Source: Polyangiales bacterium
GTDB lineage: Bacteria > Myxococcota_A > Polyangia > Polyangiales > Polyangiaceae
DNA length: 64,000 nucleotides
Direction: 5' to 3'
NCBI GenBank assembly: GCA_038231275.1
Contig: JBBRLQ010000008.1
Span: forward strand, 128,001-192,000
The notes beneath the pieces were generated by a model. That model saw only the letters and a list, made by a program, of their open reading frames with translations, had not been told where the DNA came from and ran no database searches. The position numbers were made by a program, and so were the translations under genes. Of the stretch, positions 1 through 14,708 are shown piece after piece (within the stretch, counting starts at the first letter, position 1; every line of letters starts with the position of its first letter).

Positions 1-2479
1 GGAGATGCTCACGCGCGAGCGCCTCTTCCAAGCGGAGAACGAGCTGCAGGTGCTCGATCGCATCCGCACGATGAAGATCATCCCGCCGTCCGAGAAGAAC
101 GCGCAGGTCTCGCCGGAGCTCGATCGCATCGTCTTGAAGGCGCTCGCGAAGGAGCCGACGGATCGGTACCGCGCCGCCAAGGATCTCTACCGCGACATCA
201 ACGCGCTCCCGGAGAGCACCGCGACGCGCGATGAAGTTGCATATTACATGCGTCAGGCCTTCGCCGAGGCGGCGAAGGCATCCGTGCCGGAATCAGCAGA
301 AAAGAGGCAGCCAGCGATGAATCGTGTGGACGGCGGGGACAGCGTGGGCCAAAAAGCCGCGCGGCAGGAGGCCTTGGTGATGTCAGCAACCGAGAACAAG
401 GGATCGGACCTCGATATCTTCGAGGGACTTGGGAAGAAGGGTGCCGCCGTCGCGCAGCGCGTGTCGAGCGTCCCTGCCCCGCCCCGCTCGGGAGGCGGTC
501 TTCCGCCGCCGCCGCTGAACGGAGCCGACATCGCGGCCGCGAAGCGCACGCTCGTCGGGATGGCGCCAGGCACGGCCGCCGCGAGCGCCGCGCCTGCGTC
601 GAATGGTCCGCCGTCGCAGCCGGCCATGCGCGCCGCGCCGCCGCCCCCGCCGGGCCGCGGATCGCTTCCGAGCGTGAGCGCGCCGCCGTCGCGCCAAGGT
701 GTGAGCGGCCCGCCGCCGCTCGTCCCCCCGCCGGCGCCGTCGACGCGTCCCGGTCCGCCGCCGCCGTCGGCGCGCGCCAAGAGCAAGGGTGGAGGCCCCG
801 GTGGCCTCGACATGGAATGGGATGACGAGGACGAGGCCACGCACGTCTTCGACAAGAGCGAGTCCAAGGTGACGCCTGCGCCGGTGGCCGACACTCCGCC
901 GCCGTCGTCGCGAATCGGTCGTCCACGCCCGAACGCGCTGCAGAACGGCAACGGCCTCGCGCCGCCGCCGCCGCCCCCGCCGCCGCCGAGCGCCGGAATG
1001 CGCGCGAGCTCGCCGCCGTCGCAGCCGGGCCTCCGCGCCGCGTCCCCGCAGAGCGGAATGGGACCGACCTCGCAGTCGCCGTTCCGTCCGTCCGCGCCGC
1101 CGCCGCCGCCCGCGAGCCAAGGCGCGTTCGCGCGCGCTTCTGGCGTCCCCGCGTCGGTGCCGCCGTCGTTCGGCGGCAGCACGACGCCGATGGGCATGCC
1201 CGGTCATCAAGTGACGACCGCGCCGCTCCCGATGCCGACGCCGCCCCCGCGCCAGTCGATGGGCGCGTCCGCCGTCGCGCAGCGCTCGATGGAAGCGACG
1301 GCGCTCGTTCGTCCGCAGCCGAGCCGCACCGGCCTTTGGGTCGCGCTCGGCGTGGCGTTCACCGCCGCGGTCGCCGGCGCCGTCTTCTTCCTCACGTCGC
1401 CGCGCACCGGGCGCGTCGTCGTCAACGTCAACGATCCGAAGGGCGTCGCGATCAACCGCGTCGAAATCTTCGTCGACGGCAAGAAGTGGTGCGACACGAC
1501 GCCGTGCGCGATCGATCCGGTTCCGGCCGGTGCGCACGAGGTCAAGGTCCTCGCGGACGGCTTCGAGGTCCCCGCGGCACGCGCGATCTCTGTCGAGGCG
1601 CGCAAGGAGTCGAGCCTGTCGTTCGCGCTGGCGCCCGCCGCCGGTCGCGGCGGCACGGGCGTCAAGGTCGCCGGCAACCAGCCCGGCGTGAAGCTCTTCG
1701 TCGACGATCGCGAGATCGGTCCGCTCCCCGCAGAGGTCCGTGACCTCGCCCCGGGCAGCCACCGCGTCCGCATCGTGGGCACCGACCGGTACGTGACGAT
1801 CGAGAAGAACGTCACCGTCGCGAAGGACGAGGTCCTCGACCTCGGTCCGCAGCAGCTCAAGGTCGTGAAGGGGAAGATCACCGTCACGCCGGGCACGCTC
1901 GGCGCGAAGGTCTACATCGTCTCCGGCGCCGATCGCCGCGAGCTGCCGATCCTGCCGATCTCGGTGGACATCGACACCTCCAAGTCGTGGCAGCTCGAGG
2001 CGAACCGCATCGGCTTCAACGACTACCGCCAGCCGGTCAGCTTCGACGACGGGCAGGCCGAGAAGACCTTCGTGGTCACGCTCGACCCGCGCGGCACGGT
2101 CGCGGCCAACTCGAACCCGACGCCGCAGCCCGTCACCGCGGGCGACCCGAAGCCGGCGCCGCAGCCGGTCGCCGCCGCGGACAGGCCGAGGCCGAAGCCG
2201 GCCCCCGCGCCGGATCCGACGCCGAAGCCCGAGGCCGCCGACCCCGCGCCGGCCGCCGGCGGGGACTCGTTCCTCGACATCAACTCGATCCCGGTCGCCA
2301 ACGTGCTCCTCGACGGCAAGCCCATCGGCACCACGCCGAAGCTGCACGTTCCGGTCACGCCGGGCGCCCACACGGTCGTCTTCGTCAACGCCGAGCAGGG
2401 GCTGAAGAAGAGCGTGTCCGTGCAGGTCGGCGCCGGCGAGACCAAGAAGGCCATCGCGAAGCTCCGGGCCACGGAGTAG
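1..2479 (+). CDS. Membrane Ser/Thr protein kinase with Pro-rich linker and C-terminal PEGA domains (5'-truncated by window)
   Basis: Begins in kinase subdomains IX-XI (MLTRERLF...LDRIVLKALAKEPTDRY). Followed by a long Pro-rich linker, a TM helix (LWVALGVAFTAAVAGAVFF) and PEGA-like repeats (IFVDGK..TP, VLLDGKPIGTTP). Confidence 0.85.
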   Translation, partial: EMLTRERLFQAENELQVLDRIRTMKIIPPSEKNAQVSPELDRIVLKALAKEPTDRYRAAKDLYRDINALPESTATRDEVAYYMRQAFAEAAKASVPESAEKRQPAMNRVDGGDSVGQKAARQEALVMSATENKGSDLDIFEGLGKKGAAVAQRVSSVPAPPRSGGGLPPPPLNGADIAAAKRTLVGMAPGTAAASAAPASNGPPSQPAMRAAPPPPPGRGSLPSVSAPPSRQGVSGPPPLVPPPAPSTRPGPPPPSARAKSKGGGPGGLDMEWDDEDEATHVFDKSESKVTPAPVADTPPPSSRIGRPRPNALQNGNGLAPPPPPPPPPSAGMRASSPPSQPGLRAASPQSGMGPTSQSPFRPSAPPPPPASQGAFARASGVPASVPPSFGGSTTPMGMPGHQVTTAPLPMPTPPPRQSMGASAVAQRSMEATALVRPQPSRTGLWVALGVAFTAAVAGAVFFLTSPRTGRVVVNVNDPKGVAINRVEIFVDGKKWCDTTPCAIDPVPAGAHEVKVLADGFEVPAARAISVEARKESSLSFALAPAAGRGGTGVKVAGNQPGVKLFVDDREIGPLPAEVRDLAPGSHRVRIVGTDRYVTIEKNVTVAKDEVLDLGPQQLKVVKGKITVTPGTLGAKVYIVSGADRRELPILPISVDIDTSKSWQLEANRIGFNDYRQPVSFDDGQAEKTFVVTLDPRGTVAANSNPTPQPVTAGDPKPAPQPVAAADRPRPKPAPAPDPTPKPEAADPAPAAGGDSFLDINSIPVANVLLDGKPIGTTPKLHVPVTPGAHTVVFVNAEQGLKKSVSVQVGAGETKKAIAKLRATE

Positions 2480-2492
2480 CCTTCTCGGCGGT

Positions 2493-3965
<1,473 letters not shown>

Positions 3966-4000: not shown

Positions 4001-4015
4001 TGACGAAAATTGTCA
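4001..4015. promoter_or_regulatory. Candidate enhancer (bEBP) binding palindrome TGAC-N7-GTCA
   Basis: TGACGAAAATTGTCA lies about 190 bp upstream of the sigma-54 motif. A related TGACGTAACTTTGT starts near 4130. Confidence 0.45.
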
Positions 4016-4190
4016 CTCGCCGCCATCGCCATGGACGATTCACGGCGAAACCCGCGCCCACACGAGCGCCCCGCGGCCCTACCGAAGCGCACGCCGGACC
4101 CGGTCATTTCTAGGCTTTCCCCCCCGATATGACGTAACTTTGTGGCTCGCTGCGCGCTCGTCGCCCGCGGCCTGACCGAGAGGTTCCCCA

Positions 4191-4206
4191 TGGCACGACC
4201 GGTGCT
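4191..4206 (+). promoter_or_regulatory. Sigma-54 (-24/-12) promoter for the pilin genes
   Basis: TGGCACGACCGGTGCT has exact GG-N10-GC spacing (GG 4192-93, GC 4204-05) and sits downstream of a sigma-54 activator gene. Confidence 0.75.
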
Positions 4207-4219
4207 TAGTACTGCCCCT

Positions 4220-4879
4220 GTGAGAAGCCTTGGCCCCTGCCCGAATCGCGTCGCGCTTGCGCGGCGACGAAATCAAGCGGGCTTCACTCTCGTGGAGCTC
4301 GGGGCGGTCGTTACTATCGTGGGCATCCTCGCGGTGCTCGCCGTGGTCGGCTACCGGAAGATGATCACGGCGTCGCACAACGCCGAAGCCACGCACATGG
4401 TCAACGCGATCCGTACTGCGCAAGAGAACTACAAGGCCGAGACCGGCACGTACGCGGCGATCACGGGCACCGCAACGACGGCGCTCTCCATCACGAATGG
4501 CGGCGGCACCGACTGCTCGCAGCTCGCCGCCATGTATCCACTGGCGAGCCCGACGGCGGGCGTGGTCACCAAGACGGCGTGGGGCTTGGCGTGCACCGGC
4601 TCGCAGTGCCCGACCGCGGGCATCACCTGGGACTCGATCCCCATCCACGTCGATGGCCCGGTCATCTACGGGTACACGACCGTCGCCAACCTCGCCGGCA
4701 CCACGCCGGGCGCGCTCAGCATGCTTCGCAACGGCACCTACAGCCTCACGTTCCCCACGGCGACGACCGACTGGTTCGCGGTCGCCGCGTGCGGAGACCC
4801 TGACGGGGACAAGGTCTTCAGCGCCTACGTCTCCAGCTCGTTCTCCAACGAAATCTTCGCGTCCAACGAAGGCGAATGA
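4220..4879 (+). CDS. Type IV pilin-like protein (pilin 1), Thr-rich; start uncertain (4190 ATG or 4220 GTG)
   Basis: Prepilin motif QAG|FTLVELGAVVTIVGILAVLA and C-terminal CGDPDGD motif. The 4190 ATG lies within the sigma-54 promoter, which favours the later start. Confidence 0.8.
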   Translation: MRSLGPCPNRVALARRRNQAGFTLVELGAVVTIVGILAVLAVVGYRKMITASHNAEATHMVNAIRTAQENYKAETGTYAAITGTATTALSITNGGGTDCSQLAAMYPLASPTAGVVTKTAWGLACTGSQCPTAGITWDSIPIHVDGPVIYGYTTVANLAGTTPGALSMLRNGTYSLTFPTATTDWFAVAACGDPDGDKVFSAYVSSSFSNEIFASNEGE

Positions 4880-4978
4880 CCCAAAAGCTTGTGCGCTCGA
4901 AAAGGGGCCACGTTCCGACACCACAACACGAAGCTCCAGCGGCACACGTGGCCCACCGAGCGAAAGAAAGGACAGCAG

Positions 4979-5527
4979 ATGCGTAAGGTACTCTCTCTCA
5001 AGAAACGCGGATTCACGCTCGTCGAGCTCATGATCGTCGTCGCCATCGTCGGCGTGCTCGCCGTGCTCGCGATTTACGGCGTCCGTAAGTACATCGCGAA
5101 CTCGAAGACCACCGAGGCACGTAACTCGCTCGGTGAAATCAAGAACGACTCGGCGTCCGCGTTCGAGCGCGAGACCGGCGGCACGACCGTGCTCGCGGCC
5201 GGCAGCTCGACGACCCTCCTCCGCGCGCTTTGTCCGGGCGGCGCAAAGGTTCCGTCGGCCGGCGTCCCCGCGTCGTCGAAATACCAGTCCGCCAAGGGCG
5301 ACTGGGCCGACAACGCAGGCTGGCAGTGCCTGAAGTTCTCCCTCGAGCAGCCGCAGTACTTCCAGTACGAGTTCCTCAGCGGCGGCGGTACCACGAGCTA
5401 CATCGCCAGCGCGTACGGTGACCTCAACGGCGACACGATTCTCTCGACGTTCGCCGTCTCGGGCAACGTCCAGGCCGGCGCGCTCAACACGTCCCCGACC
5501 ATCCAGGAGACCAACCCGGAGGAGTAA
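4979..5527 (+). CDS. pilA: Type IV major pilin
   Basis: KKRG|FTLVELMIVVAIVGVLAVLAI with a canonical short basic leader and an AAAGGA RBS. Followed by a strong terminator. Confidence 0.88.
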   Translation: MRKVLSLKKRGFTLVELMIVVAIVGVLAVLAIYGVRKYIANSKTTEARNSLGEIKNDSASAFERETGGTTVLAAGSSTTLLRALCPGGAKVPSAGVPASSKYQSAKGDWADNAGWQCLKFSLEQPQYFQYEFLSGGGTTSYIASAYGDLNGDTILSTFAVSGNVQAGALNTSPTIQETNPEE

Positions 5528-5548
5528 AACCCCCGGCTCGGTTCTTCG

Positions 5549-5593
5549 GCCTTGCCCCGTCGCACGAAGATGGGGCAAGGCTTTTTCCTTTTT
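5549..5593 (+). terminator. Rho-independent terminator after pilA
   Basis: Hairpin GCCTTGCCCCGTC / GATGGGGCAAGGC followed by TTTTTCCTTTTT. Confidence 0.85.
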
Positions 5594-5631
5594 GTGGACC
5601 TGGTGTGCGAGAGAGAGTGGCGGCCCCTTCG

Positions 5632-7389
5632 ATGAACACGCGCGACAAGGTGGAGCGATGGGCACCGCTCGTCGCCGGTCTTCTCTTCGTCATCCCGGTC
5701 CTGGCCGCGCGCTACCCGCCGATGACCGACCTCGCGCTGCACGAGGCCGTCGTCGCGGTGCTCCGCCACTTCGACGATCCGAAGTACTTCGCGCCTGGGC
5801 TCTACCGCTACAACCTCGGACACCCCAACCAGCTCTTTTATTTCATCGCGTGGCCGCTCTCCTACCTCGTTGGCACGAGCTGGGCGATGAAGCTCGTCGT
5901 CGCGGGAACGCAGATGGGGCTCTTCCTCGCCGGCGCGCGCTTGGCGCGGTACTTCGGCACGCCGCGCTGGACGGCGCTCCTCGTGGGCCTCTTGGGCCTC
6001 GGGTGGTTCTTTTATTGGGGTCTCATCGCGAACCTCCTGGGGCTTGCGATCTTCCTGACCGTGCTGCCGACCCTGGACCGCTTCGTCACGAGCCCGACTC
6101 CTCGGCGCGCCGCCGCGGCCTTCGGGATCTTGCTGCTGCTGTACGGGGCGCACGAGAGCCTCATGGTCTGCGCCGCGTTCATGATCGCGCTCTTCGCGCT
6201 CGGGCACCCCCTGCCCACGCGCGCGTTCGTGCTCCGCCTGGCGCCGCCGGTCGCGATGTTCGGCGTGACACTCCTCCAGATCTGGTGGGGGCAGCGACTC
6301 CGTGCACCCTACAACCAGGCGGTCGGCACCACGTTCGATCCGATCGGGTACAAAGTCTCGACCATCTCCGGCGTGCTCTTCGCGGGGTACGAGCCGTACG
6401 TCCGCAACCTCATGCTGCTCCTCGTACTGATGGCGATGGTGCTCCTCACCCTCGCGCGCTGGCGCGAGGAGCCCGCGGTACGGGGGCGGCCGAGGCGCGA
6501 GCTGTTCGTGCGGTTCCGGTTCGAGATCTTCGCGGCGAGCCTGTTCGCGCTCTACTTGACGATGCCGATGACCGTGAACGGCGCGACGCTCTTCTACCAG
6601 CGCTTCTTTCCGCCGTCGTACGCGATCCTCGCGGTTGCGCTCGCCCCGCGCGGGGCACCTTCGCCGGCGTGGCGAGTGCCGCGGCTCATTTGCCTGGTGG
6701 CGCCGCTCGCGTCGTTGGCGATCGCGTGGCCGAGCTTCGTCGAGTCGCACGTGATGGCGCGCGACATCGAGGCGCTCGCCGAGCTGACCGAGTACAACAG
6801 CGCGACCGCGCTCGTCGACGTCGGCACGACGCCGACCTTGCGCTTGTTCTCGGCGTCGACGTTCGAGGGGCACGTGCTCGCGATGCGCGGAGGGCGAACG
6901 CTGTTCGACTTCACGCGCTCGCCCATCGCGCCGGCGTTCATGAACCCCGCGTACGCGTGGGACGAGCCGTGGGGACGTCTCCAGTACAAGCCGATCTTCA
7001 TCAGGCCGGAGCACGACTGCGACTACTTCCGCTACGTGTACTTCCACTCCGCCGGCGCGGATCTGCACAGGCTGGCGATTGCCGCGATGGAGCCGGACGC
7101 GCGACTGGTCGGGACGCGCGGAGAGTGGTCGCTGTTCGAGTCAAAGCACCTGAAGCACGGCGTGCTCTCGCCCGATGGGCACCTCCCCTACCCGCGGCCG
7201 CATACGCTGCGGAAGAAGATGAAGGACGTTCTCCGCAAAGTGAACGGCGAGGCGATCCCCGCGGAGACTCCGCAGGAGCCGCCGCCTGGGTGGGTAGGGC
7301 AGCCGCTGGCGCTTCCTGATCCGGGGGACGATCCGGGTCCTCCCGAGGCCCTGCCCGACGGCGGAGTGACGGGCGGAGACGCCGGCTAG
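5632..7389 (+). CDS. Polytopic membrane protein, candidate GT-C-fold glycosyltransferase
   Basis: Roughly 10-12 hydrophobic helices, an acidic/His loop after TM1 (PPMTDLALH) and a soluble C-terminal domain. Lies immediately downstream of pilA. Confidence 0.55.
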   Translation: MNTRDKVERWAPLVAGLLFVIPVLAARYPPMTDLALHEAVVAVLRHFDDPKYFAPGLYRYNLGHPNQLFYFIAWPLSYLVGTSWAMKLVVAGTQMGLFLAGARLARYFGTPRWTALLVGLLGLGWFFYWGLIANLLGLAIFLTVLPTLDRFVTSPTPRRAAAAFGILLLLYGAHESLMVCAAFMIALFALGHPLPTRAFVLRLAPPVAMFGVTLLQIWWGQRLRAPYNQAVGTTFDPIGYKVSTISGVLFAGYEPYVRNLMLLLVLMAMVLLTLARWREEPAVRGRPRRELFVRFRFEIFAASLFALYLTMPMTVNGATLFYQRFFPPSYAILAVALAPRGAPSPAWRVPRLICLVAPLASLAIAWPSFVESHVMARDIEALAELTEYNSATALVDVGTTPTLRLFSASTFEGHVLAMRGGRTLFDFTRSPIAPAFMNPAYAWDEPWGRLQYKPIFIRPEHDCDYFRYVYFHSAGADLHRLAIAAMEPDARLVGTRGEWSLFESKHLKHGVLSPDGHLPYPRPHTLRKKMKDVLRKVNGEAIPAETPQEPPPGWVGQPLALPDPGDDPGPPEALPDGGVTGGDAG

Positions 7390-7415
7390 TCGAGCCGTAG
7401 CCGAGGACCTAAGAA

Positions 7416-8300
7416 CTACCGAGCCTGCGCGAGCCGGCGGCGTGCTTGCGGAGAGCGCGGGCGCATGTCGACGACGAAGCCGTGCAGATGGGCAAGGCGC
7501 GGCATGAGGCGGGTCGTGCTCCCGTCGAAGCCGGGATGCCGGAGGAGCGCGGGGAGAAGCTCCTCGCGCCATCCCGGACCGCCGAAGTAGGGCCATTTTC
7601 GGCCGTCATAGACGAACGACTCCGCGAGGCGCGCGCCGTCTGCGTCGGCGGTGAATTGCACGTCGGACTTTTTCTGGCGAAACAGCTGCCGCGCGCGATC
7701 GGCGAGCGACTGGCCGGCGGAGACTTGGAGATCCGGCCACCACGGGCAGTCGAAGTACACGTGATCGGCGACGCGCCCGACCTCCCAGAGCGCCGGCGCG
7801 AGCACGTCGGTGCGCCACGTCTCGGGCGGCTCCATCCCGCGGATGCCACGCAGGCGCGCCGCCGTGCGGATCGCGGCGACCCCCCAGTTGTCGGGATTGC
7901 ACACCGTCACGACCAGGAGCTTCTTCGCGCGCGCGGCGAGCTCCTTCAAGTAGCTGCGCCAGTCGGGCGCGAGCGGGAGCGCGTGGTACGCGAGGACGAG
8001 ATCGGCGGCGGGAAGCCCCTCGAGCGACGTGGTCACGCGAACATCGACCTTCGCGCCAAGCGACGTGTACACGCCGCGCGCGAGGTCGGCCTTCGCTTCT
8101 TCGTCGACCGCGGAGGTGACGTGAACACCCTGCAGCGCGAGCCCCGCGCCGTGCACGCCGGCGATCCCGGCCATGCCGTCCAGCGGCCCCTCGAGCATCG
8201 ACCCGATCTCGTACGCCTTCGCCCAAGCATCGAGGCGCTGGTAGAAGCAGTATCGCTCGTACGCGCTGCCGAGGCCGCGATCGGCGGTGACGAGGCTCAT
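7416..8300 (-). CDS. Class I SAM-methyltransferase-like protein
   Basis: ADLVLAYHAL...WRSYLKELAARAKKLLVVTV resembles methyltransferase motifs II-III; motif I is atypical. Overlaps the radical SAM stop codon (ATGA). Confidence 0.55.
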   Translation of the reverse strand: MSLVTADRGLGSAYERYCFYQRLDAWAKAYEIGSMLEGPLDGMAGIAGVHGAGLALQGVHVTSAVDEEAKADLARGVYTSLGAKVDVRVTTSLEGLPAADLVLAYHALPLAPDWRSYLKELAARAKKLLVVTVCNPDNWGVAAIRTAARLRGIRGMEPPETWRTDVLAPALWEVGRVADHVYFDCPWWPDLQVSAGQSLADRARQLFRQKKSDVQFTADADGARLAESFVYDGRKWPYFGGPGWREELLPALLRHPGFDGSTTRLMPRLAHLHGFVVDMRPRSPQARRRLAQAR

Positions 8301-9415
8301 TTTTCGGCCGTTCCCGAAGTGCCTGCGTGGATCATGTTAGCGCCGACCCGCGCCAGCGTGACCGGATCGAGGAGCATGTTCGTGTAGCTCGCGTTCGCGA
8401 GCGGGCACGCGCACTCCTTGTTCTTGACGCTCTTGCGAAACGTCTCCGCGGTCTCTCCGAACCACACCGGCCGGAAATCGTAACCGTGGTCGCGGAGGTT
8501 CCCCATCGACTCCGCGCGCACGCAGCAGCCCCACAGATGCCCGTCCGGAGCGAGGTGCGCGCTCGCCCACCCCGCGTAGCAATCGATCACCTGACGCTTC
8601 TCCTCCAGCACCCGCGACGCGAGATCGTAGTACTCGAGGCGAAGCGACTCGACGAGGCGGGCGACCGGCTTGAGCGAGCGCTTGCTGGCGACGACGTTCT
8701 TAAGGTGCGCGACGGCGCGGCGGTAGTCCTGCGGATCCGGGGTGATGTCCTTGTGAAGGGTCTTCAGCTCGACGCGGTTCTCGGCGACCTCGGTGATGTA
8801 CGAGTCCGGATCGAAGACCCGCCGGATCTCGCGCTGGATCTCGGGGATGCGGTGGACGTTGAGCTTCGAGATGACCGTGTGAACGCCCATCACGATGTGG
8901 TCGTAGGTCTTTTGGAGATCGCGGATGAGACCCTTCACCTCGATCAGCTTCTCCCAGTTGTGATCGGCGCCGCGGATCTCGTCGTGCTTCTCGCCGATCT
9001 CGTCGACCGAGAGGTTCAGGACCAGGCTCGATCCGCGGGAAAAATGGGCAATTCTGGGGAGGAGCTGGTGGATGCGCTCGGTGATGACGCCGTTCATCGG
9101 GATGTTGATGATCGTCGGCTCGATCTGCGTGCGAATCAGGCGCACGATCTCGTCGAGATCTTTTCGCACGAACTGATCGCCGCCGGAGATGGTGACCCAG
9201 ATGGGCACCTTCTCGAGCGTCGGGAAGATGCGGCCGTACTCGTCGACCGAGAGATCATCGACCTTCTTCTGCCAGATGTCGCAGGTCGCGCAGCGGCTCG
9301 GGCAGCTGTAGGTGACGGACACCGTCAGGTTGATGGGCAGCTGGCGCGTGCGCCCGGTCGCGTGCTCGACGCGGTAGCCGGCGAGGCGGGCGAGGACCGG
9401 CAGCTTGCGCGACAT
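8297..9415 (-). CDS. Radical SAM enzyme with C-terminal SPASM/twitch-like Cys cluster
   Basis: CxxxCxxC (CPSRCATC), SGGD motif, and C-terminal CYAG...DG..WGCC...CAC. ATG at 9415 overlaps the GT2 stop (TAATG). Confidence 0.88.
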   Translation of the reverse strand: MSRKLPVLARLAGYRVEHATGRTRQLPINLTVSVTYSCPSRCATCDIWQKKVDDLSVDEYGRIFPTLEKVPIWVTISGGDQFVRKDLDEIVRLIRTQIEPTIINIPMNGVITERIHQLLPRIAHFSRGSSLVLNLSVDEIGEKHDEIRGADHNWEKLIEVKGLIRDLQKTYDHIVMGVHTVISKLNVHRIPEIQREIRRVFDPDSYITEVAENRVELKTLHKDITPDPQDYRRAVAHLKNVVASKRSLKPVARLVESLRLEYYDLASRVLEEKRQVIDCYAGWASAHLAPDGHLWGCCVRAESMGNLRDHGYDFRPVWFGETAETFRKSVKNKECACPLANASYTNMLLDPVTLARVGANMIHAGTSGTAEK

Positions 9416-10395
9416 TACTTTCGCGCCTCGTCGACCTGCGGAACCTTCGCGGCCGGCGGGATGCTCGGCGATGGGACGTGCGCGCCGGCGCCGGGCAGGA
9501 CCGAGAGGAGGCGCTTGGTGCTCCGGAGCTGCTTCCACGTGCGGTGCTTGCCGCCGAGGATGCGCGCGTCCACGAAGCCGGCGACGCGCGCGACGACCTC
9601 CGTAGCAATCGCGGCGCCGAGCGCGCGCTTTCCGAAGGCGTCCTGCTCCTGGAACATGTCGTACGCGACGCGCAGGAGCAGCGAGCGATCGAGCGTCGCC
9701 ACTTGGTAGCCGAACGCGAAATCGAGCCAATAATGGCCGCGCGCGATGCGGCGGCGCTGCTCGAAGTACTCGTCGAGGCGCTCCGGGCCGTGGTTCTGCA
9801 CGATCGCGTCGCCGGCGTACGCGAGCTCGTAGCCCTGGGAGCGCACGATGTCCTCGACCGACGCCTCGTCGACGACCGACAGCTCGCTCACGCGCTCGAT
9901 GAGCTTCGAGCGGAACGAGACGAGCTCGCCCATCTTGGGGTGAATCATCGCGACGCGGTGGTGCATCTCCCAGAGGAGCTGCACCATCTTGCCGACGGTG
10001 TCCTTTGCGGGGTTGTCGGGGATGGGGCGGGCGCCGACCATCCCGACGTCGGGGTTCGCCTCGTAGCAACGAACGAGCTTCTCCACCACGTCGGGCGCGA
10101 CGCGCAGATCGGCGCTGCAGATGACCGCGATGTCGGCGCGCGGGTTGCGGACGCGGAGGTACTCGTTGATCGCGGCGACCTTGCCGCCGCGGCGCTCTTG
10201 AACGTGGACGTGCACGCCGGGGCGGCCGCGGGCGACCTTGCGCGCGAGATCGGCGGTGTCGTCGGTGCATCCGCTCGCGACGACGACGATCTCCACGATC
10301 CGCGCGTGCTGCGTCTCCTGGTCGAGGAGCGACCGCAGAACGGTCCGGATGTTGGCCGACTCGTTGTGCGCCGGGACCAGGATGGAGACGAACAT
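9415..10395 (-). CDS. Glycosyltransferase family 2
   Basis: N-terminal VSILVPAHNE, GCTDDT, GKVAAIN and a QxxRW-like EQRRRI motif. Confidence 0.88.
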   Translation of the reverse strand: MFVSILVPAHNESANIRTVLRSLLDQETQHARIVEIVVVASGCTDDTADLARKVARGRPGVHVHVQERRGGKVAAINEYLRVRNPRADIAVICSADLRVAPDVVEKLVRCYEANPDVGMVGARPIPDNPAKDTVGKMVQLLWEMHHRVAMIHPKMGELVSFRSKLIERVSELSVVDEASVEDIVRSQGYELAYAGDAIVQNHGPERLDEYFEQRRRIARGHYWLDFAFGYQVATLDRSLLLRVAYDMFQEQDAFGKRALGAAIATEVVARVAGFVDARILGGKHRTWKQLRSTKRLLSVLPGAGAHVPSPSIPPAAKVPQVDEARK

Positions 10396-10431
10396 CTATC
10401 GAGATTTCCAACGAAGAAGATACCATGAAGC

Positions 10432-11436
10432 ATCACGTCCCGACGACTCGCCCTCGTGACCGGCGCGACCGGTTTCATCGGCTCCCACCTCGTGCGAAAG
10501 CTGCTCGGGGAGGGCTGGCCGGTGCGCATGCTCGTGCGCAGCCCCGACGGCGAAGGGGCGAAAGAGCTGGTGGCGGCGGGGGCCGAGGCGTTCCGTGGGG
10601 ACTTGGGTGACCCGTCGTCGCTCGGGAAGGTCGGCGCGGGGGTCACGCACGTGTTCCATGCGGCGGCTCAGCTGAACATGAACCTCCAATCGGCGACCCT
10701 CGCCGACTTCGCCACGAACGCGAGCGGCACCGAGGCGCTCGTCGACGCGCTGGCGGGGGCGCCGCTCGAGAAGTTCGTCCACGTCTCGAGCCTGGCCGCG
10801 ATCGGCATTCGGCCGGTCGGGATGATCGACGAGACGTTCCCGTGCGATCCGGATCTCGCGTACGGCAAGAGCAAGCTCCTCGCCGACGAGCACCTCTTGC
10901 GGCTCTACCGCGAGCGCGGCTTGCCCGTCGTCATCCTGCGCCCGCCGACTGTGTACGGTCCAGGCGAGCGATACAATTTCTTGTCGATGTGCGCGGCGAT
11001 CGCGCAGAAGAAATTCGTCTTCATCGGCGACGGCTCCAACCGCGTCGATTTCTTGTGGATCGGAAGCCTGACCGCGGCGCTCGTGGGGGCCGCGGAGCGG
11101 GGACGCGCGGGAGAGGTGTACCTCGTCGCCGATGATCCGGCGCGATCGTTCCGGGACACCGTGGACGCGGTGTGGCGCATCGTGCACGGGACGCCTGCGC
11201 CACGGTGGCATCTCCCGGTGTCGCTCGCGTACGCGCTCGCGTACCCGATGGGCGCGCTCGGCGCGAGGCTCGGACGCGCGGTGCCCCTCTACCCCACGCG
11301 CGTGCGCACGATGGCCGGGGACATGTGCTTCGACCTCGGGAAGATCAAGCGCGAGATCGGCTACGCGCCCGACGGCGCCTTCGAAGGCAACCTGCGGACG
11401 ACGATCGACGTGTATCGCCAGCGCGCCCTACTGTGA
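10432..11436 (+). CDS. NAD-dependent epimerase/dehydratase (extended SDR); start anomalous
   Basis: LALVTGATGFIG, HVSS, YGKSK (YxxxK) and LRPPTVYGP. The first GTG is at 10456, but the frame is open from 10429 and includes the beta-1 strand. Confidence 0.85.
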   Translation: MTSRRLALVTGATGFIGSHLVRKLLGEGWPVRMLVRSPDGEGAKELVAAGAEAFRGDLGDPSSLGKVGAGVTHVFHAAAQLNMNLQSATLADFATNASGTEALVDALAGAPLEKFVHVSSLAAIGIRPVGMIDETFPCDPDLAYGKSKLLADEHLLRLYRERGLPVVILRPPTVYGPGERYNFLSMCAAIAQKKFVFIGDGSNRVDFLWIGSLTAALVGAAERGRAGEVYLVADDPARSFRDTVDAVWRIVHGTPAPRWHLPVSLAYALAYPMGALGARLGRAVPLYPTRVRTMAGDMCFDLGKIKREIGYAPDGAFEGNLRTTIDVYRQRALL

Positions 11437-12600
11437 CGGCGCAGCCTTTTTTCCACGCGAGCGGCCGAGGAAGAGGAGCGCTCCGGTGACGCTCGCCGAG
11501 TACCAATAGAGCCGGTAGAGGAGGCTCACGCTGAGGGCCGCGGGCGCCGAGACGCCTGCGCGCGCGAGGAAGACCACGAACGCGGCGTCGCTGGTCCCCC
11601 ACCCTCCCGGGAGCGCCGGAATCGCCCCCGCGATGAACGCGATGGCAGCGCCGGCGTAGACCCAACGCTCCACCGTCGGCGTCACGTCGAGCGCGCTCAC
11701 CAGCCCGCGGATCACGCCGAGCTGCACCGCGGAGACGACGAGGCTCCATGCGAGCGCCCGCAGGAGCGCGGCGGGGGCGCGGGGATCGTTCAGGTACTCG
11801 AGCACCGGCTTCGCGGTGCGCGCGAGGAGGCGGTGCTCCAGAATTTTTGCGCCGCGCATGGGCTTCGAGCGCAGCACCGCGAGGCCGAGCGCGACGGCGA
11901 CCGGGATCGCCCCGAGGATCAGCACCGCAGGGCCGACCGCCGAAGGCTCGAAGACGGCTGCGAGCGCGGCCGCCATCCCCGCCATCGTCGAGAGGCCGAT
12001 CGCGCGATCGAGCAGAACGCTCGCCGCCACCGTCGCCGTCGGCACCCCGAGGCCTGTGAGCGACGCGATGCGCACCGCGTCCCCGGCGACTCCGCCCGGC
12101 AAGAGTACGCCTGCCGCCTGCGCCTCCAACGTCACCCGCCACGCATGGCGCACGGTGACCGGCGCGTTCGCGAGGCGAAGCAGCGCATGCCATCGCGCCG
12201 CCCACGCCAGCGTGCCCAGGCCGTAGACCGCCGCGAGGAGCGCGAGCAGGCCAAGCCGCGCGCCCGCCAGCGTCGACGCGAGGCCCGGCTCGCAGTCGAG
12301 CCGCGCGCACGCCTCGGGCGAGAGGCGAACGGGCCCGCGCGGTGCTTGCAGAGTGCACCCATTGGCGTCGCGCGAGACGGGAAATCGCGGCCCTTTCGAC
12401 GCGGCGGCCGGCGCAGTCCCCTCCGGCGCCAGGCCCGTGTCGAAGCACCGATCGCGAATGGGCACGACGTAGGCGACGAAACCGAGCGCCAGGATCGCGA
12501 GGCCGAACGTGACGAGCCGGCGGCGCAGGCCCGCGGTCGCCGGCGTGGCAGCAGCCGCAGCGGCGGTTTTTGGGTCCTTGCCTTCTTCGTTCGTTCGCAT
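11428..12600 (-). CDS. UPF0104 / lysylphosphatidylglycerol synthase TM-like flippase
   Basis: ARWHALL, LPGGVAGDAVR, SVLLDRAIG, PALPGGWG and LLYRL motifs typical of this family; multiple TM helices. Confidence 0.8.
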   Translation of the reverse strand: MRTNEEGKDPKTAAAAAATPATAGLRRRLVTFGLAILALGFVAYVVPIRDRCFDTGLAPEGTAPAAASKGPRFPVSRDANGCTLQAPRGPVRLSPEACARLDCEPGLASTLAGARLGLLALLAAVYGLGTLAWAARWHALLRLANAPVTVRHAWRVTLEAQAAGVLLPGGVAGDAVRIASLTGLGVPTATVAASVLLDRAIGLSTMAGMAAALAAVFEPSAVGPAVLILGAIPVAVALGLAVLRSKPMRGAKILEHRLLARTAKPVLEYLNDPRAPAALLRALAWSLVVSAVQLGVIRGLVSALDVTPTVERWVYAGAAIAFIAGAIPALPGGWGTSDAAFVVFLARAGVSAPAALSVSLLYRLYWYSASVTGALLFLGRSRGKKAAPSQ

Positions 12601-12700
12601 GTCCGGCCACCAAACGCGCGCCAGAGAGCACCTTAGCCGCCCGGCTCCGAAGTGAGCCATCTCTTCGCACTTTCGCCGTCCCTTGCGGTATCTTGCCCGC

Positions 12701-13291
12701 GTGATCCGCGCGCCACGCGCCAGCAGACGCCGACGGTGGGGGCAGCGCCGCGCGCGCGGAGTGGCCCTCACCGAGGCCATGAATTTCCTGGCGCTCGCCG
12801 CGATCTTGAGCGCCGGTGGCATGTACGGGCTCGCGCGGTACGTGCGGCACGCCAAGACGGCCGAGGCGATCGGCTCGGTGACGGCGATCGCTGAAGCCGC
12901 CGCGCGCTACTACGACCAGTCGGACAGCAACCAGCCGGCGGGGACCACGCCCGAGGCCGCGCACGCGATGCGCCACTTTCCGCCGGGCTCCAAGGCCGCC
13001 GTCCCCGGGGACGCCGACGCGATCAAGGGCAAGAGGTACCAGTCGACGCTGGCCGACTGGACCGGATCGCCGTGGGCGGAGCTCCGCTTCTCGATCCCGC
13101 AGCCGCAGTACTACTCGTATGCGTTCGAGTCGCAGGGGTCGGGCGCACAGGCCACCGCCGCCGCCGTCGCCCACGCCGACCTCGACGGCAACGGGAAGAT
13201 CTCCACCTACCGCTTGAGCATCGCGCCCGATCCGGTCACATTCAAGGCGAAGGTCGCGGTCGAAATCGAGAAGATCGACGCAGAGGAGTGA
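12701..13291 (+). CDS. Type IV pilin paralogue (pilin 3), start approximate
   Basis: RG|VALTE prepilin-like motif with Glu5. Clear similarity to PilA (YQS..DW...W..L.FS..QPQY; ADLDGNG). Confidence 0.75.
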   Translation: MIRAPRASRRRRWGQRRARGVALTEAMNFLALAAILSAGGMYGLARYVRHAKTAEAIGSVTAIAEAAARYYDQSDSNQPAGTTPEAAHAMRHFPPGSKAAVPGDADAIKGKRYQSTLADWTGSPWAELRFSIPQPQYYSYAFESQGSGAQATAAAVAHADLDGNGKISTYRLSIAPDPVTFKAKVAVEIEKIDAEE

Positions 13292-13296
13292 CGGAG

Positions 13297-13827
13297 ATGG
13301 GCTCGGGCGTCGCGCGCAGGCAACGAGGGTCGCGCGGCCTCACCGCGGTGGAGGCGGCGATCGTCTTCGCGATCGGCGGATCCCTCCTCGCCGTGGCGGT
13401 CCCGGCGTTCGTCCGCGAGTTGCACGCGTCGCGCTTCGCCGAGCCCGTGGAAGGACTCCAGCGAATGGGGCAAGAGGCGCTCACTTACGCGGCGTCCAAG
13501 CCCGCCCGCGATGCGTTCCCGAAGAGCGCGCCGCTCACTCCATCCTCCCCTCCGCGCGGCACGCGCGAGCTCGATCCCTCTGGGGCGTGGGACCACCCGA
13601 CCTGGGTCGCCCTCGGTTTCCGCGCAGCACCGGAGGGAGTCCCGCACGCCTTCGCGTTCGCGTTCGATTCGACGCCGGGTCCGGCGCGCTCGACCTTCAT
13701 CGCGCACGCGCACGGCGACCTCGACGGGGACGGCGTGCGCAGCACCTTCGAGCTGCGGGGCCACGCGCAGGACGGCGAGCCGGCAGCGCTCGAGCCCGGG
13801 CTTTACGTGGAGAACGAGGTCGAATGA
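13297..13827 (+). CDS. Type IV pilin paralogue (pilin 4)
   Basis: RG|LTAVEAAIVFAIGGSLLAVAVP and GDLDGDG motif. An alternative GTG start at 13288 overlaps the upstream stop. Confidence 0.75.
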   Translation: MGSGVARRQRGSRGLTAVEAAIVFAIGGSLLAVAVPAFVRELHASRFAEPVEGLQRMGQEALTYAASKPARDAFPKSAPLTPSSPPRGTRELDPSGAWDHPTWVALGFRAAPEGVPHAFAFAFDSTPGPARSTFIAHAHGDLDGDGVRSTFELRGHAQDGEPAALEPGLYVENEVE

Positions 13828-14708
13828 AGTCGAGCGGCGTCCTCGTCGGCCTCCTCCTCGCCGTGAGCGTCCTCGGCGTCGCGCGCGTGCAGCCGCGCCT
13901 CGCCGCGCGCGTCCACGAGGTAAAGGTCGACCACGATGTCTACCTCTTGCCGCCGCCCTCGGAGCTCCGCGCGATGTCACTCGGCTACCGCGCCGCCGCC
14001 GCGGACGCCGCGTGGGCGAAGCTCATCGTCGAGTACGGAACGCACTGGAGCGAGCATCGACCGTTCGACGACGCCGCCAAGTACATGGAGGCGATCCTCG
14101 CGCTCGATCCCACCTACCCGCTCGTCTACAAATACGCCGAGACGCTGATCGTCTATCACCCGCCGGTCGGCACGCTCCAAGACTGGTACGTCGCGCGCGG
14201 CTTCCTGGAGCGCGGCACCCGCGAGCGACCTTACGACAGCGAGGTGTGGCTTCATTACGGGCAGTTCCTGGCGTTCGCCGCCGGCTCCTTCGTGAAAGAC
14301 CAGGCCGAGCTCGATCGGTACCGGGAGGAGGGCGCGCGCGCGATCGTGCACGCAGTGGAGCTCGGTGCCGACGCGGACAGGACGATCTCGGCGGCGACGC
14401 TCCTCAGCCGCTATGGGCAGCGCGACGCCGCGATCCGCGACCTGCGCCGCGCGTATGCCCTCACCGACGACGACCGCGACCGCGGTCTGATCGCGCAAAA
14501 GCTCGCCGTCCTTGGCGCGACGGCCGACAAGGACGAGATCGAGAGCAACATGCGCGTCATCGAATCCCGTTGGCGGGACGAGTTCGCCTTCCTCTCGCGC
14601 GACGCGTACATGCTCATCGGTCCCATCCGCGACCCGAACAAATGCGTTGGGCGCGCTTCCGTAGGCTGCCCTCGCGACTGGAACGACGTCATCCAGCGCG
14701 CGCCCTGA
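13824..14708 (+). CDS. Pilin-locus accessory protein, PilG/XapA-like (TPR-like helical)
   Basis: N-terminal TM, then LP...LR..SLGY....AD..W motif, which I recall from deltaproteobacterial pilin-adjacent proteins. ATGA overlap with pilin 4. Confidence 0.55.
   Translation: MKSSGVLVGLLLAVSVLGVARVQPRLAARVHEVKVDHDVYLLPPPSELRAMSLGYRAAAADAAWAKLIVEYGTHWSEHRPFDDAAKYMEAILALDPTYPLVYKYAETLIVYHPPVGTLQDWYVARGFLERGTRERPYDSEVWLHYGQFLAFAAGSFVKDQAELDRYREEGARAIVHAVELGADADRTISAATLLSRYGQRDAAIRDLRRAYALTDDDRDRGLIAQKLAVLGATADKDEIESNMRVIESRWRDEFAFLSRDAYMLIGPIRDPNKCVGRASVGCPRDWNDVIQRAP

Follow-up and report, generated by a model that had tools for sequence, protein, structure and literature searches.

The window analysed here is a stretch of 64,000 nucleotides from a soil myxobacterium of the family Polyangiaceae (Polyangiales bacterium, assembly GCA_038231275.1, contig JBBRLQ010000008.1, positions 128,001 to 192,000 of the forward strand). 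Near its start, a cassette of six genes lies between two pairs of type IV pilin-like genes. It comprises a gene for a 585-residue polytopic protein with a predicted GT-C fold (TM585), a trio of genes for a family 2 glycosyltransferase (GT2), a radical S-adenosylmethionine (SAM) enzyme (rSAM) and a 294-residue protein with a predicted SAM-methyltransferase fold (unk294), a gene for an extended SDR, and a gene for a flippase-like membrane protein. We describe this cassette and the pilin operon that holds it, and we weigh whether the two together form a pilin glycosylation pathway.

Because the window has about 69% G+C, lists of open reading frames (ORFs) are crowded with shadow frames. Genes were therefore called by frame analysis of third-position G+C (GC3), combined with searches against Pfam and NCBIfam profiles. 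All genes that an earlier note had listed from the letters alone were found in their places (Table 1). The same note had proposed that the trio is translationally coupled. Indeed, on the minus strand the junction between GT2 and rSAM reads TAATG and that between rSAM and unk294 reads ATGA, both being overlaps of start and stop codons.

Table 1. Features of the pilin operon, the cassette and their flanks (coordinates of the window)
Feature	Position	Strand	Evidence or remark
Ser/Thr kinase, C-terminus, with PEGA domains	2-2479	+	
PilR-like sigma-54-dependent response regulator (receiver, AAA+, Fis HTH)	2493-3965	+	Sigma54_activat E 7e-69, Response_reg, HTH_8 (Pfam)
Sigma-54-type -24/-12 promoter-like element TGGCACGACCGGTGC (TGGCAC-N5-GTGC)	4191-4205	+	just 5' of the pilin1 coding region
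pilin1, type IV pilin-like	4220 (or 4190)-4879	+	PF07963 N_methyl 24.1 bits (cut-off 21.2), TIGR02532, AG|FTLVEL motif
pilin2, canonical prepilin	4979-5527	+	N_methyl 33.9 bits, TIGR02532
TM585, polytopic protein, predicted GT-C fold	5632-7389	+	predicted structure; uncurated family
unk294, predicted class I SAM-methyltransferase fold	8300-7416	-	predicted structure; uncurated family
rSAM, radical SAM/SPASM enzyme	9415-8297	-	PF04055 37.0 bits (cut-off 29.5), PF13186 25.6 bits (cut-off 21.5)
GT2 glycosyltransferase, first gene of the coupled trio	10395-9415	-	PF00535 E 9e-20
Extended SDR (NAD-dependent epimerase/dehydratase family), divergent from the trio	10456-11436	+	PF01370 E 2e-36
LPG_synthase_TM (former UPF0104) flippase-like polytopic protein	12600-11428	-	PF03706 E 6e-31; TIGR00374 'flippase-like domain' 53.9 bits (cut-off 43.2)
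pilin3, degenerate pilin-like protein	~12683-13291	+	translation; orthologues beside pilin4 in related loci
pilin4, degenerate pilin-like protein	13297-13827	+	translation; weak NF041775 match, E 0.0019
Signal-anchored tetratricopeptide repeat (TPR) protein	13824-14708	+	TPR_14 (Pfam), one N-terminal hydrophobic segment
CAP-domain protein, then GH3 enzyme, beyond the TPR gene		-, then +	from the map of 2 to 16 kb

TM585 starts 105 nt past the end of pilin2 (5527 to 5632) on the same strand, and the same order was seen in related loci. A hydropathy scan of the protein showed about 10 hydrophobic segments in residues 1-370, followed by about 215 soluble residues. In the AlphaFold2 model (mean pLDDT 88.1, pTM 0.87), helices extend to residue 383 and are followed by an alpha/beta domain; the C-terminal part of about 215 residues is predicted to lie in the periplasm. 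When the model was compared with the PDB by Foldseek, ranks 1-30 were all GT-C enzymes (E down to 7e-5, TM-score up to 0.46), including AftD, ALG12, STT3, DPY19, ArnT, AglB, PglB, AftA/B, EmbA/B and Pmt4. Thirteen matches had E <= 0.001, and the first chain of another class, an MFS transporter, appeared at rank 31 with a probability of 0.30. Alignment of Foldseek's 1000 best chains with VIA-align gave Z 13.8 for Pmt4 (341 residues, rmsd 4.8), 13.6 for STT3 and 12.8 for ArnT, although helical bundles can attain a Z near 13 simply through the way their helices are arranged. The 43 GT-C entries ranged from Z 13.8 to 8.1, and unrelated folds followed from Z 3.9 down. Given the uniform match list and this steep drop in Z, the GT-C assignment is convincing, and the label GT-C-like that the earlier note had given to this protein can be kept.

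In an alignment of TM585 with 25 orthologues from related loci (A1), D33, H37 and E38 of the motif PPMxDLxxHE are invariant in all 26 sequences. These residues stand directly after the first transmembrane (TM) helix (TM1, residues 3-25), which is where GT-C enzymes carry their catalytic carboxylates, and D33 and E38 presumably fill this role in TM585. No Pfam or NCBIfam family matched the protein, including the curated GT-C families PMT_2 and TMEM260-like, and a PDB sequence search returned only a 39-residue match (E 0.02). The family is nevertheless large, with 2935 clusters (50% identity) at E <= 0.001 and 256 at E <= 1e-30. As leads only, the ESM Atlas connected TM585, and also a polytopic protein with TPRs from a related locus, with clusters named 'mannosyltransferase family' or bearing PMT_2. 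Taken together, TM585 is predicted to be a membrane glycosyltransferase of an uncurated GT-C family that would use a polyprenyl-phosphate-linked donor. The genome of the window encodes a second GT-C of this family (G000:C17:75892-77490; L175:9875-11497; profile E 2e-139, 32% identity). No glycan or pilin genes surround it, and it adjoins a gene for a 763-residue thioredoxin/DsbA/FKBP protein.

The AlphaFold2 model of unk294 has a pLDDT of 86.1, and Foldseek returned 368 matches with E <= 0.001, the best being 4htf/CmoM (E 3e-7), with ChlM, TmtA and GtmA also among them. The methyltransferase-like label of the earlier note is thus supported at the level of the class I fold, while methyl transfer itself can only be surmised. 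The motif I region reads E37-G-P-x-D41-G-M-A-G45 and not the canonical E/DxGxGxG, and strand 2 is not followed by any invariant acidic residue (alignment A2, 26 sequences). Pfam methyltransferase families did not match unk294, and the best hit of a PDB profile search had an E of only 1.3.

For rSAM, an alignment across Polyangiaceae, Myxococcaceae, Acidobacteriota, Anaerolineae and one Pacearchaeota archaeon (A3) showed an invariant CxxxCxxC core (C38-x3-C42-x2-C45) and five invariant C-terminal cysteines (C279, C297, C298, C335 and C337). The spacing C279-x12-G-x4-C297 fits what we take to be the first half of the SPASM motif. The full seven-cysteine motif with two auxiliary clusters is not present, although PF13186 scored above its cut-off, and the pattern suggests a twitch-like C-terminal domain with one auxiliary cluster. 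Every NCBIfam radical SAM model scored far under its cut-off, and a PDB search found nothing among solved structures that matched significantly by sequence. Conservation of the enzyme is unusually high, with 74-92% identity among Polyangiaceae compared to 31-65% for TM585 and 37-77% for the pilins of the same loci. The only sequence relatives of the GT2 in the PDB were 6yv7, a family 2 glycosyltransferase (E 2e-10), and the dolichol-phosphate mannose synthase 5mlz (E 8e-6).

The flippase-like protein has 10 hydrophobic segments by hydropathy. Its start is uncertain, as the ORF is open up to 12855. The earlier note had named a UPF0104 flippase, and PF03706 (LPG_synthase_TM) matched, as did TIGR00374 above its cut-off; the cassette membrane protein belongs to this family and is not a small flippase of the GtrA or ArnE/F type. 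A PDB sequence search gave nothing useful for it. Flipping of a phospholipid (MprF) is a known activity of the LPG_synthase_TM family. The best NCBIfam match of the SDR was HpnA, and we considered whether the genes belong to a hopanoid (Hpn) module. This was rejected, as HpnA reached 140.9 bits against a cut-off of 367.65 and HpnL 16.2 against 195.65, and HpnB, HpnI and HpnH were also far under their cut-offs.

The earlier note had called for a survey of the synteny between cassette and pilins. We scanned one genome per prokaryotic species for rSAM, obtained 156 confirmed relatives, and mapped 15 window proteins by tblastn onto the best 80 of these 156 loci. In 35 of the 80, all from Myxococcota and mostly labelled Polyangiaceae or Labilithrix, rSAM is at least 65% identical to that of the window, and 22 of these loci are well flanked (at least 6 kb on one side and at least 9 kb on the other). 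The pilin3/pilin4/TPR group lies on one side of the cassette in 21 of the 22, and pilins lie on both sides in 17. GT2 and the flippase-like gene were present in all 22, unk294 in 21, an SDR in 20 and TM585 in 19. The arrangement recurs in many species, which argues against a chance juxtaposition. The single well-flanked exception (L060, genome G110) has its cassette between genes for a PilZ protein, a metallo-beta-lactamase-fold protein and a P-type ATPase.

Whether TM585 belongs with the other five genes was also evident from its distribution. In genome G322, the six genes form one co-directional block in the order TM585, SDR, flippase, GT2, rSAM, unk294. Among 301 Myxococcota genomes, which were surveyed coarsely while the Polyangiaceae were covered well, rSAM (E <= 1e-30) was found in 21 and the unk294 family (E <= 1e-10) in 16, all of which are among the 21. 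TM585 matches with E < 1e-100 were found in G000, G110, G175 and G215 only, the very four genomes in which rSAM is at least 72% identical; this search used a stricter first look, and its counts are a floor. Since related genomes are not independent, the co-occurrence is a pattern and not a statistic. Together with the single operon in G322, it shows that TM585 belongs with the cassette.

To see how the pilin operon looks elsewhere in the family, we used the TPR gene, which was present in 56 of 61 sampled genomes, and retrieved stretches of as much as 20 kb next to it from 46 of them. Two stretches were left out as too short, and 44 pilin loci were analysed. The operon itself (sigma-54 regulator, pilin1, pilin2, pilin3/4, TPR) is near-universal in Polyangiaceae. 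Half of the loci (22/44) are compact, consisting of PilR, pilin1/2 copies, pilin4 and TPR with less than 0.9 kb between the pilin groups. Ten carry an insert of 1.2-9.8 kb without the cassette, three carry the rSAM cassette between the pilin groups, another three have parts of it beside pilin3/4 at a contig end or rearrangement, and six are uninformative.

The inserts differ from locus to locus and mostly encode membrane proteins of a periplasm-facing, transferase-like kind, so we regard the region between the pilin genes as a variable slot and the window cassette as one of its several fillings. The others include polytopic proteins of 540-700 residues with C-terminal TPRs (L149, L150, L160, L181; related to PMT_2/TMTC-like clusters by an Atlas lead), TMEM260-like GT-C proteins (L162; also in L073, L161 and L177), a PMT_2 protein with an FkbM methyltransferase (L193), membrane-anchored sulfatase-fold proteins (L164, L181, L073) and PAP2 proteins (L201, L158). 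Fused MFS/spermidine-synthase proteins of 1100-1300 residues (NF037959) occupy it at L153:12681-16055, L163:7942-11280, L064:13665-17249 and L158:4089-8009; one of these proteins also has a PAP2 domain. We know of no role near pilins for proteins of this kind. A PptA/EptA-type transferase identity was considered for the sulfatase-fold proteins but could not be assigned, as they gave only weak arylsulfatase or YejM matches in NCBIfam. The TM585 profile showed no similarity to one TMEM260-like and one polytopic TPR protein from the slot (hhalign probability 0.1%), and a local hmmsearch with the TM585 profile found no similarity among 21 slot and neighbour proteins. In one genome without an rSAM match (G225), a flippase-like gene (L151:3480-4544, 45% identity) stands alone beside pilin4, followed by ParA, trigger factor, ClpP, ClpX and Lon; it looks like a cassette remnant left after rearrangement.

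The pilin operon begins with the PilR-like regulator gene, which is directly 5' of pilin1 in related loci too. Its neighbour is the Ser/Thr kinase with PEGA domains and not a PilS-type histidine kinase; the pairing is kept across the family, in some loci past the TPR gene. The position of the sigma-54-like element, before pilin1 and downstream of an activator gene, is suggestive. We took the consensus to be GG-N10-GC, and a search with this pattern gave 13 matches in the window against 8.85 expected, a count that is not significant; such a site was found before pilin1 only and not before the cassette genes. The start of pilin1 is uncertain, as the GTG at 4220 lies downstream of the site and the ATG at 4190 overlaps it.

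Four pilins had been announced by the earlier note, and this stood in full for pilin1 and pilin2 (PF07963, TIGR02532). In contrast, pilin3 and pilin4 match no Pfam family and are better called degenerate pilin-like proteins, although by eye they keep Gly-1 and Glu+5. The leader of pilin2 reads MRKVLSLKKRG|FTLVEL behind an AAGGA ribosome-binding site, a Cys85/Cys117 pair is invariant among 26 orthologues (alignment A4), and pilin2 is probably the major pilin. The corresponding motifs are RG|VALTE, GDLDGNG..STY and a C-terminal DAEE in pilin3, and RG|LTAVE, GDLDGDG..STF and NEVE in pilin4. All four proteins thus have a GDL(N/D)G(D/N)G..ST(F/Y) motif and an acidic tail (NEGE, NPEE, DAEE, NEVE) in common, and the pilin2 tail xSPxIxExNPEE is nearly invariant over 26 species, which may point to a conserved C-terminal signal. 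Across the family, pilin4 is kept beside the TPR gene, whose start overlaps the pilin4 stop (ATGA) and which is the conserved last gene of the operon. The earlier label PilG/XapA-like for this gene found no support: NCBIfam gave no match, and the best 120 of its 339 relatives are labelled 'hypothetical', 'TPR repeat protein' or, once, 'predicted Zn-dependent protease'.

The G+C content is 0.65-0.69 over 4001-10500, which holds the pilins, TM585 and the trio, and 0.70-0.76 in the flanks. Either acquisition of the island or a relaxed codon bias in genes linked to pilins would be compatible with this. Among the slot genes of the window and related loci, no transposase or integrase was seen. Further along the window, an FHIPEP-family gene (FlhA/SctV-like export gate, PF00771 E 8.5e-198) at 30436-32430 (+) adjoins a PP2C phosphatase gene; no further genes for flagella or type III secretion turned up in the window.

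Related modules were also found far from the Polyangiaceae. In a Pacearchaeota archaeon (L080:4675-15026), one strand encodes a GT2, a GT9-NUDIX protein, a PMT_2 protein (GT-C), a second GT2, an rSAM 42% identical to that of the window, a 259-residue protein, a methyltransferase, an unknown protein and an SDR. The 259-residue protein resembles the unk294 profile (hhalign probability 84%, E 7e-6) and has the motifs D-x-G-x-G-x-x-YER and PxWPD in common with it. The separate methyltransferase is canonical, and a B12-radical SAM gene lies on the opposite strand. Two Acidobacteriota loci (L111, L118) contain an rSAM of 57-59% identity, a GT2, a flippase-like protein, an SDR and an unk294 of 41% identity, adjoined by a 577-residue protein with 10 hydrophobic segments. 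An Archangiaceae locus carries a flippase, a GT2, an rSAM, a 559-residue polytopic protein and a CMAS-type lipid methyltransferase. As the unit of GT2, rSAM and methyltransferase-fold protein is found in such distant loci, it is old and mobile and usually accompanied by a large polytopic protein. Since no pilins lie near the Pacearchaeota and Acidobacteriota occurrences, the module itself is generic, and its link to pilins is specific to Polyangiaceae. In Anaerolineae, rSAM homologues (44-48%) occur with B12-radical SAM genes or alone, without GT2. In two of these loci (L092:3775-11074 and L102:4119-10179, Anaerolineae/Ca. Amarolinea), the homologue (44-45%) ends a row of three genes for B12-binding radical SAM proteins and one for a SPASM radical SAM protein.

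From these data, we propose that a single lipid-carrier-dependent pathway of periplasmic glycosylation is encoded by the six genes, that in one lineage of Polyangiaceae it was captured by the sigma-54/PilR pilin operon, and that it has the pilins as acceptor, a reading to which we give an even chance. The SDR would prepare the nucleotide sugar, or would later reduce a keto intermediate. The GT2, associated with the membrane, would load the sugar onto polyprenyl phosphate on the cytoplasmic face. Coupled to it, rSAM and the methyltransferase-fold protein may tailor the lipid-linked intermediate, which the LPG_synthase_TM protein would flip. TM585 would then transfer the sugar in the periplasm to Ser/Thr of at least one of the four pilin-like proteins before assembly. 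The pilins are the candidate acceptor because TM585 directly follows pilin2 inside the PilR/sigma-54 operon and because the slot elsewhere holds PMT_2 or TMEM260-like proteins. The idea of a pilin glycosylation island, put forward in the earlier note, therefore stands as to the GT-C fold, the methyltransferase fold, the pilin linkage and the logic of GT2, flippase and GT-C; that the module is also found without pilins speaks against a pilin-specific reading.

A bolder version of this proposal, which we consider unlikely, has the trio, which ranges from a DPANN archaeon to the myxobacteria, perform a new, oxygen-independent sugar remodelling on the polyprenyl-phosphate carrier, for example by rSAM oxidation and SDR reduction or by C-methylation. 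In Polyangiaceae, a new GT-C family would put the product on the pilins, and the slot would be a swap-in locus for pilin modifications, by several GT-C families or by sulfatase-fold transferases, that make pilus surfaces more diverse as a defence against phages or as a means of kin discrimination. Speculatively, a twitch-type rSAM could oxidise a hydroxyl and the SDR reduce the resulting ketone, an oxygen-independent epimerisation in parallel to DprE1/DprE2.

Several observations weigh against the pathway with the pilins as acceptor. Hydropathy predicts no TM helix in the GT2, and the ArnC, PpgS and AglJ models scored far under cut-off for it, no curated polyprenyl-phosphate GT2 model being reached. 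The window pilins gave only 44.4 and 38.2 bits, over the N-terminal part alone, with the Myxococcus PilA equivalog NF041775 (cut-off 400), although these scores are among the three best of the genome, and the ATPases of the pilus machinery lie on other contigs. Judged by eye and without statistics, Ser and Thr content and C-termini of the pilins do not evidently differ between loci with and without the cassette, and the cassette is missing from most pilin loci of the family, as counted above. None of the 45 loci with an rSAM below 65% identity gave a pilin, TPR or TM585 match. A rival possibility, somewhat unlikely in our view, is that the same pathway serves an acceptor other than specifically the pilins, namely lipopolysaccharide (LPS) core or lipid A, exopolysaccharide (EPS), peptidoglycan or periplasmic proteins in general, and that its position reflects co-regulation or an insertion hot spot. 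Such an acceptor would fit the GT2, rSAM and unk294-like trio with GT-C and SDR in Pacearchaeota, the Acidobacteriota set and the partial sets in two other Myxococcota families (Myxococcaceae and Archangiaceae), all without pilins near. It would also fit the cassette of G110, on a contig without pilins and apart from the pilin and GT-C genes of that genome (the contigs of which are short), the block of G322, which is outside the pilin operon and about 8 kb off, beyond GH3/CAP, the existence of stand-alone TM585 paralogues such as the one on G000:C17, and the lipid A transferase ArnT among the best structural matches of TM585. It does less well with the pilin adjacency in 21 of the 22 well-flanked close loci, with TM585 directly 3' of pilin2 on the same strand, and with slot fillings in relatives that include PMT_2 and TMEM260-like proteins, families named for protein O-mannosylation; moreover, no LPS or EPS genes were found near the cassette in the window.

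Lipid genes beside the cassette in two loci, two fatty acid desaturases and a CMAS-like methyltransferase in L161 and a CMAS in L061, raise a further difficulty for the proposed pathway, as rSAM may then act on the lipid part. They are in line with a quite unlikely alternative, in which a tailored membrane glycolipid is itself the end product, made and exported by GT2, rSAM, the methyltransferase-fold protein, the SDR and the flippase-like protein much as modules for hopanoid or other glycolipid head groups do, and TM585 is functionally separate. That HpnA is the best NCBIfam similarity, with HpnB, HpnI, HpnL and HpnH much lower in the lists, would agree with this, but all Hpn scores are far under their cut-offs. 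The Anaerolineae homologues that occur with B12-radical SAM genes and without GT2, and the phospholipid substrate of the flippase family, can be added on the same side. A separate TM585 is, however, at odds with its co-occurrence with the cassette and the one operon in G322, and a PMT_2 GT-C accompanies the module in Pacearchaeota, as do polytopic proteins, classed from hydropathy only, in Acidobacteriota and Archangiaceae. It is very improbable that the juxtaposition means nothing and that unrelated membrane-protein genes simply gather between the pilin genes at a hot spot of recombination or insertion. The highly variable slot content, the G+C drop over 4001-10500 and fillings without evident pilin link, such as the fused MFS/spermidine synthases, would be expected then. 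Against it stand the lack of a transposase or integrase in the slot, the strong enrichment of its fillings in polytopic, periplasm-facing, transferase-like proteins, and the position of the cassette, which is kept over many species despite divergence of TM585 to 31-65% identity.

Glycosylation of pilins is known in a few pathogens, where it alters pilus function and blocks pilus-specific phages. If the proposed pathway with pilins as acceptor is correct, it extends pilin glycosylation to myxobacteria and adds a large GT-C family without a curated profile, a pair of radical SAM and methyltransferase-fold proteins conserved across Bacteria and Archaea, and a variable slot whose alternative membrane transferases differ between species. 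The kind of process, pilin or periplasmic glycosylation by lipid-linked donors, is familiar; new are that a candidate acceptor can be named, that the GT-C family is uncurated and that the pilin operon contains a variable slot. Because the genomic context names the pilins as candidate acceptor, mass spectrometry can test the chemistry of the cassette on a single protein that is abundant and easily sheared off. The earlier note knew of no described pilin pathway with a radical SAM step, and our full-text literature search, which covered papers outside subscription access, found none either. 'Pilin glycosylation' together with 'radical SAM' gave only unrelated work on a Brachyspira plasmid, and Polyangiaceae with type IV pilin gave only unrelated work. 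In the same search, no paper joined radical SAM with GT-C, flippase and undecaprenyl, or with glycosyltransferase and LPG_synthase_TM. In a paper on the M. xanthus pilus, the one passage on glycosylation is a general remark (PMC11046646).

The scheme to which the cassette would conform is that of multi-component transmembrane glycosylation, in which, according to a review of the subject, a cytoplasmic GT2 loads a lipid phosphate, a flippase turns the product over and an extracytoplasmic GT-C uses it (PMC8035078). The lipid-carrier logic that the earlier note had read from GT2, flippase and GT-C agrees with this. GtrA/GtrB/GtrC, ArnC/ArnD/ArnE-F/ArnT and CsbB/GtcA/YfhO follow the three-part scheme that is proposed for the cassette. 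ArnD of the Arn pathway works on the sugar while it is linked to the lipid. The acceptors of these systems are teichoic acid, O-antigen or lipid A, whereas a protein, the pilin, is proposed for the window. In addition, the GtrABC and Arn flippases belong to another family than LPG_synthase_TM, GtrB and ArnC have C-terminal TM helices that the window GT2 lacks, and only in the window is the GT2 translationally coupled to radical SAM and methyltransferase-fold genes. The hopanoid genes HpnA (SDR), HpnB/HpnI (GT2), HpnH/HpnJ (radical SAM) and HpnL (LPG_synthase_TM) represent the same four protein classes as the window. In that system, the radical SAM enzyme HpnJ remodels a lipid-bound sugar. However, no squalene or hopene genes lie near the window cassette, and a GT-C is part of the window unit. 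With BtrN and anSME, which are twitch/SPASM dehydrogenases, rSAM has the CxxxCxxC core and a C-terminal cysteine-rich auxiliary-cluster domain in common. BtrN oxidises a secondary alcohol of an aminocyclitol. Unlike members of these families, rSAM stays far under the NCBIfam cut-offs and has no sequence match among solved structures.

Two kinds of pilin glycosylation can be set beside the proposed pathway. TfpO/PilO and PglL, which are en-bloc pilin O-oligosaccharyltransferases, are of the O-antigen-ligase-like (Wzy_C) class and not GT-C. They resemble what is proposed for the window in that pilin-linked glycosylation genes lie beside pilA and transfer occurs in the periplasm from an undecaprenyl-linked donor. 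They borrow O-antigen units without a dedicated tailoring cassette, unlike the window. The other is the TfpW system of P. aeruginosa (group IV pilin glycosylation, D-arabinofuranose pathway). According to the passages of a preprint that concern it, tfpW encodes a GT-C enzyme and lies immediately downstream of pilA, and the lipid-linked donor of this enzyme is built on polyprenyl phosphate in the cytoplasm, epimerised while lipid-linked by DprE1/DprE2 (an oxidase and an SDR reductase) and used in the periplasm on Ser/Thr of the pilin (bioRxiv 10.1101/2020.04.19.049825). Another preprint describes pilin glycans as protecting against pilus phages (bioRxiv 10.1101/150227). The window has in common with the TfpW system a GT-C gene directly 3' of the (probable) major pilin gene. 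The likeness is one of gene position and GT-C class, with no TPR in TM585 by Pfam. While the TfpW system uses DprE1 and a GtrA-like flippase, the window would tailor its sugar with a radical SAM/twitch-like enzyme and a methyltransferase-fold protein, and its candidate flippase is of the LPG_synthase_TM type. Finally, the biosynthetic genes are unlinked in P. aeruginosa, whereas in the window they are linked to the pilin operon itself.

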